Source: Planctomycetota bacterium (GTDB taxonomy: Bacteria; Planctomycetota; Planctomycetia; JALXBF01). From it: a stretch of 58,813 bases of DNA. The first letter of the stretch is position 1; each line of letters starts with the position of its first letter. Shown in pieces: positions 42,601 through 51,600 of the stretch. Location of the stretch: assembly GCA_026991575.1 (NCBI GenBank), contig JALXBF010000095.1, positions 1 through 58,813 of the forward strand, given 5' to 3'. The position numbers were made by a program.

Positions 42601-45600
42601 CGGGTTCGGCCAGGGTGAATGCGATCGGCAACGGCGCAGGCGGTGGCTGCTGGCGCGTGGCGTGGGTACCGGGCCAGACGGCGGCACAGGCTAGCAGCAC
42701 AGTCGCTACGGTCGGGCACAATCGCGCCAACCCGATCCTTCGGCTTGCCTGCTCTGGTACTCTCAGCCGCACTAGCTGACCGCAGAACGAGGGATGAAAA
42801 GTCGACGGCCTCAGCACTCTAGTCCGATAGTAGGTGGCGCGTGCCCGGATTGCAATGGCAGGGCCGGCTGCGCTGTGGCCGTTGGGGCCCGGTGGGCGGC
42901 GACCTGCCGGACGGGTTGGCGCGGACGGGACCGTGTGGCCTGCGTGCCGCTTGGTTGATGCCGCCGACGGCGGGACGTAAGATTGGGGTGATTCGGCGCT
43001 TCGGGCAAGCCCTGACCACTGCCAGCCCACGGATCGCTTGCTCTCCTTAGTCCCGCCTCCCCTTTTTGCTGTCCTGCCGCCGCGCGTAGCGTCTGGAACC
43101 TACGGTGAAGCGAGACGATGCGTTACCACTTGATTGACCGCATCTTGGAAATTGAGCCCGGTCGCCGGATCGTGGCGGTGAAGAACCTCTCAGCGGCGGA
43201 GGAATACCTGGCGGACCACTTCCCTGGCTTCCCGATCATGCCTGGCGTGTTGATGTTGGAGGCGATGACGCAGGCCGGCGCGTGGCTGATTCGGCTCAGC
43301 GAGGATTTTGCCCATTCGATCATCTTGCTAAAGTCGGCTCGTGGGGTAAGATATGCTAACTTCGTCGAGCCGGGCAAACAGCTGATCCTGGAAGCGGACG
43401 TGGTGCGTGAGGAGGGGCGCGAGACGAGTTTCAAGGCAAAAGGGACGATCGAAGGCAGCACCGTTGTCAGCGGCCGTCTGACGCTGGTGCGGTTCAATCT
43501 GGCGGAGCGGAACGCTGAGTTGGCGCGGCTGGACGCGAAGGTGATCCAGGCGTTGCGCCAGCTGCGGGCGACGCTCATGCGGGGCGCGAGGGTTGTGGGC
43601 GAGGCCAGTCCGGAGGAGGCGTCGCCGCTTCCGGGAGCGGGCGTTTCCGGCAGCGTGGAGGAACGGCGCGAATGACACTGGACGGCAAGATTACGTTGAT
43701 CACCGGAGGTAGTCGCGGTATTGGCCGCGCGATCGCGCTGGCGTTCGCGCGCCATGGCGCGCACGTGGCGATCGTGTACGCGCGCAACGCGGAGGCTGCC
43801 GGTGCGGTGGTCCGGGACATCGAGCAGCTGGGCCGGGAGGCCGTGGCCATTCAGGCCGACGTGCGCGACTTTGCCCAGTGCAAACGGGCATTCCAGGAGG
43901 TGCTCGACCGCTGGCAGCGGTTGGATGTGCTGGTCAACAACGCAGGCATCATCCGTGACAAGCTGTTCCTGCAGATGGATGAGGCAGACTGGCGCGATGT
44001 GATCGAGACAAACCTAATCGGCGCGTTCAACTTCTCCCGGCTGGCGGCCGAGGTGATGCTGAAACAGCGCAGTGGCCGGATCATCAACGTCTCGAGTGTG
44101 GCCGGTGCCTACGGCGGCAAGGGGCAGGTGAACTATGCGGCGAGCAAGGGCGGGTTGAACGCCTTCACCAGGGCCCTGGCCGCAGAACTGGCACCGCGTA
44201 GTATAACCGTGAACGCCATCGCTCCCGGTCTGATCGAAACGGAGATGAGCGAGGCGGTCCGGAATTTGCTGGGCAACGAGATTCGAAAGATTGTGCCGAT
44301 GAGGCGGGCGGGCAAGCCAGAAGAGGTAGCTGAGCTGGCTGTGTTTCTGGCCTCCCCGGCCGCCGACTACATTACCGGACAGGTATTCACGATAGACGGT
44401 GGCCTGAGCCTGGGCGGAATCCGTTAGCTGCCGGGGCGGAAGACTGGGGAGTGGTCCGCCTTGCAGCAAGCGGCTGGCTTGCGTACAACGGCGCAAGCCG
44501 AACCGGACGATGTCCGCCTTGGGCCAAGGTTGTGGTGTGTCTCGTTGGTCCTAGCCCTTGGTACTAGCGGAGGGTTGTGATGCCGACGCGCGAAGAGATT
44601 TTCCAGAAGGTCCAGGAGACCCTGGTCGATGCGCTGGTGGTCGAGCCCGAGGAGGTTACTCGGGAAGCGACCCTGACGGGGGATCTTGGCGCCGAGTCGA
44701 TCGACTTCCTGGACATCGTCTTCCGCCTGGAAAAAGCGTTCAACATCAAGATCCCGCGCGGCGATCTGTTCCCGGAAGAGGTCCTCGATGACCCGAAGTA
44801 TGTGGCCGACGGCAAGCTGACGGCCGAGGGCGCCGAGGAGCTGAAGCGGCGGATGCCGTGGGCCGCGGACCACATCCGTGAAGGTCTGGAGATCCAGGAC
44901 CTGTTCACGGTGGACATGATCGTCAGCTTCATCGAAAGCAAGCTGAACCAGATGGCGGCCAGCCAGAACTGATCGTGGCGGCGAGCCGAGGCCCGGGGGC
45001 GAGCGGGGTCAGCCGGCCCCGCTTGCCGACCTGGTGTTGCGGCCGAGGAGACGCAGGATGCGATGGATCTGGATCGACCGCATCGAAGAGTTCCGAAGTC
45101 GGGAGTACGCGCGGTCGGTAAAGAACGTGACGCTTGCCGAAGAGCACCTGCATGACCACTTTCCCGGCTACCCGGTCATGCCAACCTCGTTGATCGTGGA
45201 GGGCCTGGCCCAGACCGGTGGCTTGCTGGTCGGTGAGGCAAGCGGTTTCGGGGGACTGGTCGTGCTAGCCAAACTGTCGCGCGTCACGTTCCACGACTAC
45301 GCTCTGCCCGGCGACCAGATCACCTATGAGGTCAGGCTCAAGGAGCTGCGGCCCGAGGGGGCCGTCGTGGAAGGCACGGCCCGGGTGGGCGAAAAACTGC
45401 TTGCCGAAGCCGAGATCGTGTTCGCCCAGATGGATGCCCAGAAAGCGGCAGCCATCGTCGGCAACCGCTATTCGAACTTCCGCCAGGACATGCTCGACAT
45501 GATCCGGATCTCTCAGACCACAAGCACGGCAAGCAACTCTGAGCCGGCCGGTACCTCCTGAGCTACGCTGGCACCACTGGCAGTGGCTGGCCGCAACCGC

Positions 45601-48600: not shown

Positions 48601-51600
48601 CCGCACCGCCGATGGCCTCTGGCTCCAGGGGGCCTGGCTACCCGCGCGTGGCGAGAGCGAGGGGGTGGTTGTCTTCTGCCCTGGGTTCAAGATGGATCGC
48701 TGGACGGCGCTGGAGTACCTGGACGACGTGCGCGATCTGGGGCTGGATCTATTCACGTACGAATTCCGCAACCAGGGTGAGAGCGATGCTGAGGAAGGCT
48801 ATCGGCCGATGCAGTGGGTGACCACACGCGAGGTCCGCGACGTCGAGGCAGCCCTGGCCCACGTGCGCGCACGCCAGCAGGACCGTGGCCTGCCGGAGCG
48901 AATCGTCCTGTTCGGCATCAGTCGAGGGGGAGGGGCGGCGCTGGTTGCGGCCAGCCGCGACCGCGACGTACTCGGCTTGATCACCGATGGGGCCTTTCCC
49001 ACCCACGGCATGCAACTGGCATTCATGCTGCGTTGGGTGGGAATCTACGCCAATCTCCCGTTCATCTACAAGCGGATCCCTCTGTGGTACTACAGCTTCC
49101 TCTGCTTCCTGACCCGCTGCATCGTTGCCTGGCGGAACCGGTGCTGGTTACCGTCCATTGAGCGGGCTGCCCGGCGTTTGGCCGTCTCCGGCTGGCTGAT
49201 GATCCACGGCGCCAAGGACAGCTACATCCCTCCCAGGATTGCCCGTCAGCTCTACGAACTGGCCCGATGCCCAAAAGAGCTCTGGCTCGTGCCCGGCGCG
49301 CGCCACAATCAGTGCCACCGGACTGAACCGGAAGAATACAGCCGGCGCGTGCGAGCCTTCCTGCTGGAAACGCTGCAGCTGGGTCGATTAACATACTGTG
49401 ACGAGAGGGAAAATGCAGAAAGTGGGTCGACTGAGGCCCGCTAGCGGCCGCCCTCCCCGCACGCCTGGCTGACAGACGGCGAGCACCCTGCCATGAAGCT
49501 CACCACTCCCCTAGTCTGGATCCTGCGCAAGACCATCGGCCGTGTTGTCATCTGGAAAGCACGTCGCGCAGTCGCCGCCTTCAAACAGGCGGCAGCCCAC
49601 TGCCGCGAAACTCAGCAGCGGGTTGTGCTCGAGAAGATCGCACGAAATGCAGAAAGCGACTTCGGCCAGGCGCACCACTTCCAGTCGATTGCCAGCATCG
49701 AAGACTTCCGTCGTGCCGTGCCGATCACGACGTACGACTACTACGAACCGTACATCGAACGCCTCAAACGCGGTGAAGTGCGCGCCATGTTCGGCAGCGG
49801 CCAAAAGCTGCTGATGTTCGCACTCACCAGCGGTACCACCGCCCGACAGAAGTACATTCCGATCACCGACGTCGCGCTGAAAGAGTACAAGCGCGGCTGG
49901 ATGCTCTGGGGCCTGCACGTCTTCGACCAGCATCGAACCATCTTCTCGGCCGACTCCCAAACCCTGCAGCTGGCCAGCGATTGGGAGGAGTTCCGTACCG
50001 AAGGAGGGATTCCGTGCGGCTCGGTCAGCGGCTTGACCGCCGCCATGCACGGCTGGATTATCCGTCGCCGCTACTGCTTGCCGCCGATCATCGTCAAGAT
50101 CAAAGACAGCCTCGCCCGCTACTACACCGCTCTCAGGCTCGCGCTGCCTGCGCCGATCGCGATGGCCGTCGCACCGAATCCCAGTACGCTGATCACGCTG
50201 GCGCGGCTCGGGGACGAATACAAGGAGTCACTGCTCCGCGACCTGGCCGACGGCACACTCAGCTCCCGGTTCGACATCCCAGGCCACGTGCGCGACGCGC
50301 TACGGCCACGGATCCGTAAGCGATGGCGCAGCTTCGTGCGAGACATGGAACGGATCGTCGAGCGGGAAGGGCACCTGTACCCAAAGCACTACTGGCCACG
50401 ACTCACCCTGCTGGCCAACTGGACCGGCGGCACCGTTCGCGCATACCTGCGTGACTACCCGGAATACTTCGGCGATGTCCCGGTTCGTGACATCGGGCTG
50501 ATCGCCAGCGAAGGCCGCATGACCGTGCCAGTGGAAGACGGCACCCCTGCCGGCGTGTTGGATATCGTGCACGGGTTCTTTGAGTTTATCCCGGAGGAGG
50601 AGATCGAATCAGCGAACCCAACAGTATTGCTGGCGCACGAGCTGCAAGAAGGCAAGAACTACTACATCCTCATCACCACCTCGAGCGGACTGTACCGATA
50701 CGACATTCGCGATGTGGTCCGCTGCGTCGGCTGGTACCACAACACGCCGGTGTTGGAGTTCCTGCATAAGGGGGCTCACATCGCGAACATGACCGGCGAA
50801 AAGCTGACCGAGCATCAGGTCGTGACGGCTGTCGAGCAAGCGGTCAGCCGGCTCAGCCTGCGATGTCGAACCTACACGCTAGCCCCCGTCTGGGACCGAG
50901 TCCCCTACTACGCGCTGCTTGTCGAGCACCGTGACCTGAGCGACCATGCAGCTGCCGCGAAGCTGGCGGCCGAGGTCGACCAGGCTCTGCGGAGGCTGAA
51001 TGCCGAGTACGACTACAAGCGGGAGAGCTTGCGGTTGGGGCCCGTGCGTGTGCGCCTGATCCCGAACGGATCCTGGCAACGGCTTCGGGATCGAAAGCTG
51101 TCCGAAAGAGGCGGAACGCTCGAGCAGTACAAACATCCTTGCATCGCGGCCACCCTGGACTTTGCCAACCAGTTCCGCGCTATTGCCGAAGTAGCCCCCG
51201 TCGGTTCCCCATTGACCGAACGGGCTGCCACCGGGTAGGGGGGCCAGCCCGATTTGCAGCGGATCTGTCATCAAGCGACCGCGCCCATTGACCCGCTCAA
51301 CACCGTCCCGGCCAGATGGGCCGCACTCAGGGGCGAGCAAAGTGGAGTGCGATGAGCGCGTAGCCGGTACAAAGATTCGGATCCCCCTCGTACCAGCGTT
51401 TCGCTGTGTTTACCCAGGAGCCGTCCGCGCGCTGTCGGCGGGCGAGCGCGTCGACAAGCTCAACACGCCACGGGTGCTTGTTGCCTGCAGCGTCCACGAA
51501 CGGATCCTCGCCCAGGGCGTAGAGCGCCTTGGCCATGGTCTGGTAGTAGTAGTACAAGCCCTGTAGCTCCTTACCTTTTGGCATGCCCGGATTCCGTTCG

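Follow-up and report, generated by a model that had tools for sequence, protein, structure and literature searches.

The window, 58,813 nucleotides of contig JALXBF010000095.1 from a Planctomycetota bacterium, contains a locus that is best explained as the meeting point of two modules, a fatty acid synthase (FAS; module A) and a gene set around a GH3 ligase (module B), plus an adaptor hydrolase. The operon most likely points to the missing source of the unusual long-chain lipids found in planctomycetes, as well as to a new membrane lipid. In the model that we favour, albeit tentatively, module A would synthesise very-long-chain fatty acids (VLCFAs), its chain would be released and turned into an amide by the GH3 ligase, and an enolase-superfamily enzyme would change the head group. 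The model draws on genes, residues, synteny and co-occurrence determined here, and on lipid types, OlsH chemistry and essentiality taken from papers.

Gene order and boundary of the locus

The eight operon genes are all open reading frames on the + strand at 43118-51238, in the order given by the survey's finding. That finding closed the system at the GH3 gene; this boundary has to be moved, and two more genes, at 54945-57033 on the - strand and 3.7 kb from the GH3 gene, belong to it.

43118..43675, + strand: FabZ1, module A; PF07977, below the cut-off of FabZ models, identified by motif alignment
43672..44427, + strand: FabG; TIGR01830, 304 bits against a cut-off of 297.75
44580..44972, + strand: long ACP of 130 residues, marker of module A; motif GAESIDFLDI
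45058..45561, + strand: FabZ2, degenerate dehydratase paralogue; motif alignment
45678..46982, + strand: KS0, Cys-less ketosynthase, module A; alignment and tree
47079..48374, + strand: active KS; TIGR03150, 504 bits against a cut-off of 493.75
48371..49444, + strand: membrane alpha/beta-hydrolase (adaptor); Ser184-Asp283-His312, long N-terminal helix
49493..51238, + strand: GH3 ligase, module B; three GH3 Pfam domains, JAR1 as best PDB match
54945..55811, - strand: soluble Hydrolase_4 enzyme, module B; Ser-Asp-His, weakly OlsI-like
55804..57033, - strand: enolase-superfamily enzyme, MLE subgroup, module B; KxK, Asp-Glu-Asp and Lys, start codon uncertain

The operon is conserved in other genomes, as had been proposed. 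Among 65 GH3-anchored loci, 12 have the full order (FabG being absent from 5 of these), 1 lacks KS0, 5 have the hydrolase-GH3 pair only (in 2 of these the contig breaks off), and 47 lack both module A and the adaptor nearby. A promoter and terminator scan gave counts at shuffle level (3 vs 1.9; 6 vs 8.2). The listings and passages retrieved in a literature search, with subscription papers outside it, held no description of the operon, the long ACP or the GH3-enolase pair, nor is the system described in the retrieved parts of PMC12078418 and PMC12673574 (reviews), PMC12971839 and PMC10132072.

Module A and its predicted product

Alignment bears out the earlier reading of the two ketosynthases. 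In KS0, Glu replaces the catalytic Cys, the first His is kept and the second is changed to Ser; the active KS keeps Cys-His-His. Across 21 rows, the Cys site of KS0 is occupied by Asp or Glu in 20 and by Asn in 1; the acidic residues reported before were recovered, whereas the Thr reported with them was not seen. A Cys-less member beside a Cys-His-His partner is a KS/CLF-type pair, and KS0 is classed by sequence as a non-condensing, chain-length-factor-like ketosynthase, as the survey had it. In a quick tree, KS0 forms its own clade (support 100), sister to an active KS paralogue, on a long branch whose position the tree does not resolve and which it does not join to the rhizobial Cys-less KS.

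FabZ1, with the dehydratase His/Glu and the PGV motif intact, is assigned from the alignment as a 3-hydroxyacyl-ACP dehydratase. FabZ2, in which the Gly of PGV is replaced and the His is lost in some sequences, is its probable partner, and the two are one fused protein in locus L106. None of 10 other SDRs scanned (13 were found) passes the cut-off of the FabG model TIGR01830 in its five best matches, and 25 of 53 loci have FabG beside the long ACP. The operon FabG is probably the general FabG of the genome, common to housekeeping fatty acid synthesis.

The long ACP has about 45 residues inserted before the last helix. Its structure is predicted with a pLDDT of 92, and the best query-normalised TM-score among the PDB matches listed is 0.58, with the specialised ACP 2kw2. 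The gene is single-copy per genome in 51 of 301 genomes and is present in 18/18 genomes of the same class versus 32/282 others. Homologue searches returned 7998 ACPs among 8000 scored, and 4891 enolases, with no informative names; the ESM Atlas gave generic ACP and hydrolase clusters alone, mostly from Planctomycetota.

Related long-ACP clusters are also found on Streptomyces plasmids, and a profile search detected no enoyl reductase gene within the operon. Both observations would suit a highly reducing type II PKS (KS/CLF, KR, paired DH, no ER) whose polyene is capped as an amide by the GH3 ligase. We consider this reading improbable, since a FabI-like gene lies elsewhere in the genome (no FabK passes its cut-off there), FabG is often external to the cluster, the PKS preceding GH3 in locus L018 has an ER domain, and the apparent essentiality described below suits a structural lipid better. 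A link between the Streptomyces cluster and streptoaminals was considered, but no paper listed by a literature search on it had that word.

In the favoured model, module A would be a second type II FAS beside the housekeeping plsX-fabD-acpP-fabF locus, in which the KS/KS0 and FabZ1/FabZ2 pairs would lengthen the chain on the enlarged ACP, with FabG and FabI shared. Its products would likely be C26-C35 (omega-1)-hydroxy acids. Long-chain (omega-1)-hydroxy acids are called characteristic of several planctomycetes: paper excerpts report C28-C35 acids in Lacipirellula (PMC6995999) and C28-C32 acids in other Gemmataceae (PMC7534041, PMC7397252), and in Telmatocola and Zavarzinella C26-C32 acids occur "only residually bound" (PMC3327967). 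The retrieved literature passages assign no genes to these acids in planctomycetes, and for the orphan C26-C35 acids module A is the strongest candidate as a source. A very long product chain is likely; the VLCFA link is one of analogy, because the tree does not join KS0 to the rhizobial KS and the long ACP matches canonical ACP models better than the AcpXL-type one (62 vs 40 bits).

Module A is probably essential. In the available part of a study of Planctopirus limnophila, the essential set includes the run FabZ-SDR-ACP-FabZ-KS (Plim_3124-3120); its insertion indices are 0.024, 0, 0.003, 0.010 and 0.007, against 0.165 for the next gene, Plim_3119. The run was matched to module A by order and COG label, not sequence, and Plim_3119 by position alone; lpxL is also essential (PMC10632474). 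Long-chain (omega-1)-hydroxy acids would thereby gain a named, apparently essential gene set in a genetically tractable species. The main, essential outlet of module A is probably lipid A, via a single LpxL-family acyltransferase. For GH3 and the enolase, the part of the essential-gene files available (PMC10632474) gave no match to COG4948, COG2267 or "auxin". Polar effects could account for the low indices of Plim_3124, 3122 and 3121.

Module B and the adaptor hydrolase

The survey's finding had taken the FAS set to be dedicated to the GH3 ligase, which does not hold. In an investigator-chosen sample of 80 related genomes, the counts of which are not independent, 37 carry both modules, 26 module A only and 17 GH3 only. 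Thus 26 of 63 module-A genomes lack an operon-type GH3; moreover, of 18 ACP-anchored metagenome loci only 5 have GH3 after the FAS set, and the FabG is probably shared. The long ACP in 18/18 same-class genomes, 7 of them without a GH3 match, also indicates that module A is independent of GH3, and the 17 GH3-positive genomes without module A indicate that GH3 needs no very long chain. A GH3 match is found in 11/18 and 24/30 relatives (two samples), and the operon clade is present in 54/80 sampled genomes versus 10/80 for OlsH.

The adaptor occurs in 34 of the 37 genomes with both modules, in 1 of the 26 with module A only and in none of the 17 with GH3 only, so that 34 of 35 adaptor-bearing genomes carry both modules. 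We think it quite probable that module A chains flow into the GH3 product. It is unlikely that the modules are only loosely linked, with module A serving lipid A alone, the adaptor editing or recycling acyl-ACP, and GH3, enolase and hydrolase making an N-acyl amino acid of ordinary length. The 47 GH3 loci without module A and adaptor nearby fit such a link, as do the 17 genomes without module A, where patatin genes following GH3 could supply ordinary free acids; but an editing enzyme would be expected wherever module A occurs, yet only 1 of the 26 genomes with module A and no GH3 has the adaptor, and five related genomes with no LpxL-family match retain module A, adaptor and GH3. One genome (G232) has the adaptor and no GH3 match.

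In lineages with module B, the favoured model has the adaptor take the chain off the long ACP, the membrane Ser-Asp-His hydrolase freeing part of the acyl-ACP pool as acid. OlsH requires free fatty acid, not acyl-ACP, according to the available part of PMC12493201, which means that a chain bound to ACP has to be freed. The fold of the adaptor matches generic esterases, lipases and thioesterases (TM ~0.55). The earlier idea that the adaptor mirrors OlsI finds no support: it matches neither the OlsI model NF052614 nor, by blastp, any of three OlsI proteins. Genome G319 has no adaptor and retains both the enolase and the second hydrolase; its GH3 comes after a FAAL-ACP gene and a KS-AT-DH-ER-KR-ACP-TE synthase. 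The thioesterase argument from G319 concerns a single locus, and type I TEs are capable of transfer too.

We lean towards hydrolysis of acyl-ACP by the adaptor, not transfer. Transfer would mean that GH3 makes an N-(3-hydroxyacyl) amino acid from housekeeping acids and that the adaptor moves a very long chain from the long ACP onto the hydroxyl, like LpxXL on lipid A; this keeps the survey's logic and adds a very long chain as the piggyback, and it is possible, though we rather doubt it. Co-occurrence fits it equally well, the adaptor has a membrane anchor and a full Ser-Asp-His triad, and O-acylation by a hydrolase fold is known from OlsI (PMC12493201, in part), but it is the second hydrolase that resembles OlsI, not the adaptor, and a PKS thioesterase domain stands in the adaptor's place in G319.

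The GH3 protein has the N, M and C domains of GH3 acyl-acid amido synthetases together with their three nucleotide-binding motifs, and is by these features an acyl-adenylate/amide ligase. Its separation from OlsH is upheld (108 bits against a cut-off of 620 for NF052613, and a separate clade in the tree), and as the sole GH3 match in the genome it leaves no OlsH over cut-off. The adenylation motifs are intact. An amino lipid is still the best guess for the product, and an amide is very likely; the acid and ATP would give an adenylate, from which an amino acid amide would form. In two loci, an OlsE-like hydroxylase is fused to a GH3 of the operon clade.

The enolase gene is present in 50/54 GH3-positive and 0/26 GH3-negative genomes, and within the fetched stretch in 16/65 GH3 loci. 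Lys194/Lys196, Asp225, Glu251, Asp276 and Lys303 are invariant (14/14), as in the MLE subgroup. All NCBIfam scores are below cut-off (best 134/335 bits), including those of racemase models (DgcA 87/400, OSBS 90/201 bits). The nearest solved structures are dipeptide epimerases and 2p88/2p8b/2p8c, which we take to be B. cereus BC0371. BC0371 is an N-succinyl-Arg racemase according to the available part of PMC2948282, where the PDB entries are not named. The enolase is thus a candidate N-acyl amino acid racemase. It would deprotonate the N-acyl amino acid at the alpha carbon, the most likely result being the D form (alternatively, dehydration); for racemisation itself we see roughly even chances.

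It is highly improbable that GH3 acylates a long-chain amino alcohol to give a ceramide-like lipid. In locus L118, a different, OlsH-related GH3 adjoins a serine-palmitoyltransferase-like gene and a reductase; here, however, the best scores of the genome's two alpha-oxoamine synthases are for glycine C-acetyltransferase and BioF. A few loci have aminotransferases upstream of module A, and these are class I enzymes, not oxoamine synthases; enolase-superfamily enzymes, moreover, require a carboxylate substrate.

The hydrolase at 54945-55811 shows 26-27% identity to OlsI (E 1e-9 to 1e-7) and 32.7 bits to NF052614 (cut-off 385), and occurs in 46/54 GH3-positive and 0/26 GH3-negative genomes. It is a candidate O-acyltransferase or lipase, and may add or trim an ester-linked chain.

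LpxL-family genes occur in 72/80 genomes and are therefore of no discriminating value. All six module-A genomes without an LpxL-family match carry adaptor and GH3. Replacement of lipid A by the amino lipid in the five related LpxL-less genomes was considered and rejected, all five having LpxC, LpxB, a WaaA-type domain and Omp85. More speculatively, an essential second FAS on a new enlarged ACP family may make C26-C35 (omega-1)-hydroxy acids that many planctomycetes divert to a GH3-made D-amino acid amide, a ceramide-like, so far undescribed outer-membrane lipid; in one lineage with lipid A core genes but without LpxL, this amide would be the sole long-chain destination. If the favoured model is right, it would bring a new class of amino lipids, a large family of insert-bearing ACPs, and a ligase possibly accepting very long chains.

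Comparison with known systems

The closest arrangement is the rhizobial acpXL-fabZXL-fabF2XL-fabF1XL-adhA2XL-lpxXL cluster, with which module A shares the order ACP, FabZ, Cys-to-Glu KS and active KS, and an enlarged ACP with DFLDI. In S. meliloti, the order is ACP-FabZ-KS-KS-dehydrogenase-lipid A acyltransferase, and the first KS carries Glu in place of the Cys and lacks the His pair. Module A differs in its longer ACP (130 vs 95 residues), its two FabZ, and the absence of the zinc dehydrogenase; a hydrolase and GH3 follow instead. The lipid A acyltransferase is unlinked here (one PF03279 gene on another contig); only the distant long-ACP cluster L106 ends in it, as the rhizobial one does. 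Scores for PRK06508 (40/83), PRK06519 (80/320) and PRK06501 (343/629 bits), presumably the XL gene models, are below cut-off. In Agrobacterium, the cluster is named acpXL-lpxXL (PMC11901934, in excerpt).

The anammox ladderane-candidate cluster (amxACP, amxFabZ, two FabF), compared through its description, shares an additional ACP-FabZ-FabF-FabF set that includes a non-catalytic KS (PMC10139942; PMC2649909), but Val, Phe or Ser occupies the Cys site of the Kuenenia paralogues, unlike KS0. R. baltica FabF paralogues in which Asp or Glu stands at Cys163 were already listed in Rattray 2009 (PMC2649909). The parts of these reports retrieved propose no long ACP, GH3 or product.

With N-acyl amino acid racemases and dipeptide epimerases, the enolase shares the two-lysine active site and metal ligands; it differs in a Glu at the end of strand 8 and in its tie to a lipid ligase.

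Like the OlsH/OlsI ornithine-lipid pathway of Singulisphaera, the locus pairs a GH3-fold ligase bearing three nucleotide motifs with an alpha/beta-hydrolase; unlike it, the GH3 clade is separate, OlsG is absent, two hydrolases fall below the OlsI cut-off, and an enolase is a partner. This amounts to a second GH3 pathway in bacteria, which has an enolase partner and chain suppliers that can replace one another. True OlsH coexists with the operon GH3 in 10/10 OlsH-bearing genomes.

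Genes and catalytic residues of the operon

Reading of the open reading frames in the window reproduced the eight genes of the survey's finding in their proposed order (FabZ1, FabG, a long ACP, FabZ2, KS0, KS, a membrane hydrolase, and a GH3 ligase), all on the plus strand at 43118-51238. The first six, the chain-building set, are referred to as module A. The features discussed here are listed below.

45678-46982, plus strand: KS0, a ketosynthase with Glu at the FabF catalytic Cys position; the first His is kept and the second is replaced by Ser
47079-48374, plus strand: KS, with Cys-His-His intact and a score above the FabF cut-off
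48371-49444, plus strand: membrane-anchored alpha/beta-hydrolase
49493-51238, plus strand: GH3 ligase
54945-57033, minus strand: enolase-superfamily enzyme and second hydrolase, in the window, 3.7 kb downstream of the operon

The first KS had been described as Cys-less, and the Glu at its catalytic site agrees with this; of 21 KS0 rows, 20 carry Asp or Glu there. The ACP is 130 residues long, with about 45 additional residues preceding the last helix, and its predicted structure is confident over the whole length (pLDDT 92). Among the listed hits, the specialised ACP 2kw2 gives the top query-normalised TM-score (0.58). FabZ1 retains both the His/Glu pair and the PGV motif. In FabZ2, the Gly of this motif is gone, as is the His in some relatives. 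In the membrane hydrolase, a long helix forms the N-terminus, and the Ser184-Asp283-His312 triad is the same in all 16 aligned rows.

The GH3 protein, the sole GH3 match in the source genome, possesses all three GH3 domains and the nucleotide motifs. Its score against the model of OlsH, the GH3 ligase of the ornithine-lipid pathway, is 108 (cut-off, 620), and a FastTree phylogeny splits the two clades with full support, as expected from the earlier claim that they are distinct.

Several other genes lie around the operon: upstream, a PD40-repeat gene (40979-43030, minus strand), a type of gene found ahead of the operon in several relatives too; downstream, a gene for a squalene-cyclase-repeat protein (51327-52508, minus strand), and a NicO-like gene (57021-58505, minus strand), which recurs near the cluster in loci L007, L010, and L016. 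KS0 is interrupted by a TGA in L013.

Two gene modules and the hydrolase between them

We compared 65 GH3 loci: two genome searches supplied 60, fetched around their top GH3 matches, and a collection scan the other five. The full operon order is found in 12 of them (FabG is absent from five of the 12), one locus lacks KS0, five have the hydrolase and GH3 only, and 47 have neither. Clustering of the neighbours gave two further recurring genes, the enolase-superfamily enzyme and the second, soluble hydrolase. The enolase is within the fetched stretch in 16 of the 65 loci, and more distant lineages have the order hydrolase-enolase-GH3-hydrolase-patatin.

A single match to the long-ACP profile is found in each of 51 genomes among 301 of the phylum; all 18 genomes of the same class are among them, and seven of the 18 lack a match to this GH3. 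The 40 ACP stretches were taken from 50 matches; the omitted ten included several already fetched through GH3, so that the absence of GH3 from all 40 comes from a set biased against it. In 37 of the 40, the ACP has a FabZ gene on either side, and KS0 and KS often lie elsewhere. Metagenome loci anchored on the ACP were sampled as well; of 80, 18 extend at least 6.5 kb downstream, where they contain FabZ2 (17), KS (15), the membrane hydrolase (9), KS0 (6), and GH3 (5). By the synteny on the ACP side and the seven same-class genomes, module A is not dedicated to GH3, contrary to what had been proposed.

Co-occurrence was counted in 80 genomes of our choice (40 ACP-positive, 23 close relatives, and 17 GH3-positive without the ACP); these are related and non-randomly chosen, and the counts describe a pattern, not a statistical test. 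Module A was scored with the ACP profile, except in the 23 close relatives, where the KS0 profile was used, to which KS0 paralogues respond too. It is present in 63 genomes, and GH3 (E 1e-50 or better) in 54. The enolase is found in 50 of the 54 GH3-positive genomes and the second hydrolase in 46, whereas both are absent from all 26 GH3-negative ones. GH3, the enolase, and the second hydrolase are grouped as module B. The membrane hydrolase is present in 34 of the 37 genomes with both modules, in one of 26 with module A only, and in none of 17 with GH3 only, and it tracks both modules even where the adjoining KS is far from GH3. Judging from this co-occurrence, the hydrolase behaves as an adaptor between the modules. 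A loose linkage between them is a weaker, improbable alternative. True OlsH above the cut-off occurs in ten of the 80 genomes, and all ten carry both modules, indicating that two GH3 systems coexist.

The housekeeping plsX-fabD-acpP-fabF locus, named from sequence likeness and gene order, is on a separate contig and has no fabG. The operon's FabG scores above the FabG cut-off, which none of ten other SDRs scanned (13 were found) reached in their five best hits. These observations suggest that the operon's FabG is probably shared with housekeeping synthesis. A second small ACP-like gene lies 3' of acpP (G000:C20), with Glu aligned at the usual serine position. An active KS paralogue, sister to KS0 (G000:C58:29948-31231), is a possible third subunit of module A.

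Variants of the clusters were also observed. Both KS of the pair have Cys-His-His and FabZ2 is degenerate in family f53 (L101-L105), and L098:5089-8412 encodes a fusion of FabZ1 with a 1100-aa protein. Long-ACP clusters outside Planctomycetota, on a Streptomyces plasmid (L110:10835-20309, NZ_CP106799.1) and in Photobacterium (L111:7980-13056, NZ_CP119424.1), combine this enlarged ACP with several KS genes, some active and some inactive; 16 Streptomyces plasmid records have ACP matches. A B12 radical-SAM gene is within or adjoins module A in L037 and L041 (G092 and G044) and L157, where methyltransferases, DUF362, and DUF1571 follow GH3; DUF1571 is close to GH3 in eight loci. L002 (CAMCLK010000037.1), labelled Candidatus Kuenenia, is probably a mis-binned contig; it has 52% GC, and in KS, KS0, and GH3 alike it groups with family f97.

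Possible product of module A

Our preferred reading, held tentatively, is that module A is a phylum-level very-long-chain synthase, from which the membrane hydrolase would free chains for amidation by GH3 and later modification by the enolase and the second hydrolase. Reports on planctomycete lipids describe (omega-1)-hydroxy acids of C26-C32 in Telmatocola and Zavarzinella, bound in the residue and making up as much as 29% of that fraction (PMC3327967), of C28-C35 in Lacipirellula (PMC6995999), and of C28-C32 in other Gemmataceae (PMC7534041, PMC7397252). Cys-less FabF paralogues in R. baltica were noted earlier, with no function assigned (PMC2649909). A FabI-like gene lies elsewhere in the genome, outside the operon, and speaks against a polyene amide product, which is quite unlikely.

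The rhizobial acpXL-lpxXL arrangement is needed for very-long-chain acids on lipid A (PMC11901934). In a named S. meliloti record, this arrangement runs ACP, FabZ, KS, KS, zinc dehydrogenase, and lipid A acyltransferase. Like KS0, the first of these KS proteins carries Glu in place of the catalytic Cys and lacks the His pair; the S. meliloti ACP is enlarged like the long ACP, with DFLDI in common. A distant long-ACP cluster (L106) also terminates in a lipid A acyltransferase gene. However, all XL-type family scores for module A are under the cut-off, and a quick tree of 58 rows, with 15 near-redundant ones dropped, places KS0 as sister to an active planctomycete KS, while the rhizobial Cys-less KS is on an unresolved long branch and does not join KS0. 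Both results are evidence against direct kinship, and the parallel is one of design.

A transposon study of Planctopirus limnophila (PMC10632474) lists as essential Plim_3124 (FabZ), 3123 (SDR), 3122 (ACP), 3121 (FabZ), and 3120 (KS), with insertion indices of 0.024, 0, 0.003, 0.010, and 0.007, respectively (cut-offs, 0.013 and 0.022). Also essential there are lpxL, two other KS genes, and a distinct ACP/KS locus of the housekeeping type. The next gene, Plim_3119, has an index of 0.165, and the flanks 0.14-0.19. The run corresponds to the order FabZ-FabG-ACP-FabZ-KS-hydrolase, present in seven of the 40 ACP stretches; the genes were equated with module A by gene order and COG label only. Should this assignment be correct, module A would be essential and the adaptor non-essential, a pattern in keeping with most chains going to lipid A and a secondary GH3 branch. 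Polarity could account for the essentiality of the upstream genes, but not of the last KS. An LpxL-family gene is found in 72 of the 80 genomes, and the six module-A genomes without a match (five of one lineage and one 80% complete) all carry the adaptor and GH3. The five, G044, G092, G110, G143, and G159 (completeness, 86-96%), have no LpxL-family match at E 1e-15 and retain LpxC, LpxB, a WaaA-type domain, and Omp85.

Proposed off-loading and modification of the chains

OlsH couples free fatty acid with ornithine using ATP and requires neither ACP nor CoA (PMC12493201). Chains from module A must therefore be off-loaded before a GH3 can use them. The membrane hydrolase may release the chains from the ACP, and GH3 may then amidate them. 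The fold hits of the adaptor are generic and compatible with either hydrolysis or transfer; direct passage of the long chain as an ester-linked second chain is the main rival and is possible, though rather unlikely. The survey's finding held that the operon hydrolase mirrors OlsI, the acyltransferase partner of OlsH, but blastp gave no hit between it and three OlsI proteins; the second hydrolase is 26-27% identical to two of the three. The observation itself is confirmed, and the earlier interpretation is right in part: the separate GH3 clade is supported, the dedicated fatty-acid set and the OlsI-like operon hydrolase are not.

G319 lacks the adaptor and retains the enolase and the second hydrolase, and its GH3 is preceded by a FAAL-ACP gene and a KS-AT-DH-ER-KR-ACP-TE synthase. 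The thioesterase-ending reducing elongation module fills the adaptor's slot there. At this locus (L018:823-18107), the FAAL-ACP, the type I synthase, GH3, a hydrolase, the enolase, and an MMPL exporter are found together.

The active site of the enolase is of the two-lysine type of the MLE subgroup, and the enzyme is nearest to 2p88/2p8b/2p8c and dipeptide epimerases. Its natural substrate would be an N-acyl amino acid, and our best guess at the reaction is racemisation, with dehydration second. The enolase and the second hydrolase would act on the GH3 product. In L059:1542-9285 (G002), the genes for an SDR, GH3, the enolase, an ACP, an AMP-ligase, and a UbiD-family decarboxylase are consecutive, and UbiD is also 3' of GH3 in L038; this proximity would fit dehydration followed by decarboxylation to an enamide.

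An amino-lipid context recurs: GH3 carries a fused OlsE-like hydroxylase at two loci, and paralogues have MprF-type domains beside them. The fused fatty-acid-hydroxylase domain (172 of 475 bits) is found in L065:6013-8607 and L066:5923-8484, with the enolase nearby.

The whole system resembles AcpXL feeding an OlsH-type ligase, yet by the membership tests it belongs to neither AcpXL nor OlsH; among the papers that our literature searches listed, none described the operon, its long ACP, or a pairing of GH3 with an enolase. A ceramide-like product is the most unlikely of the alternatives. In L118:1332-5536 (G245), an OlsH-related GH3 (404 of 620 bits) is flanked by a serine-palmitoyltransferase-like gene on one side and an OleD/HpnA-like reductase on the other, and this gene set is a lead to a GH3-type ceramide synthase.
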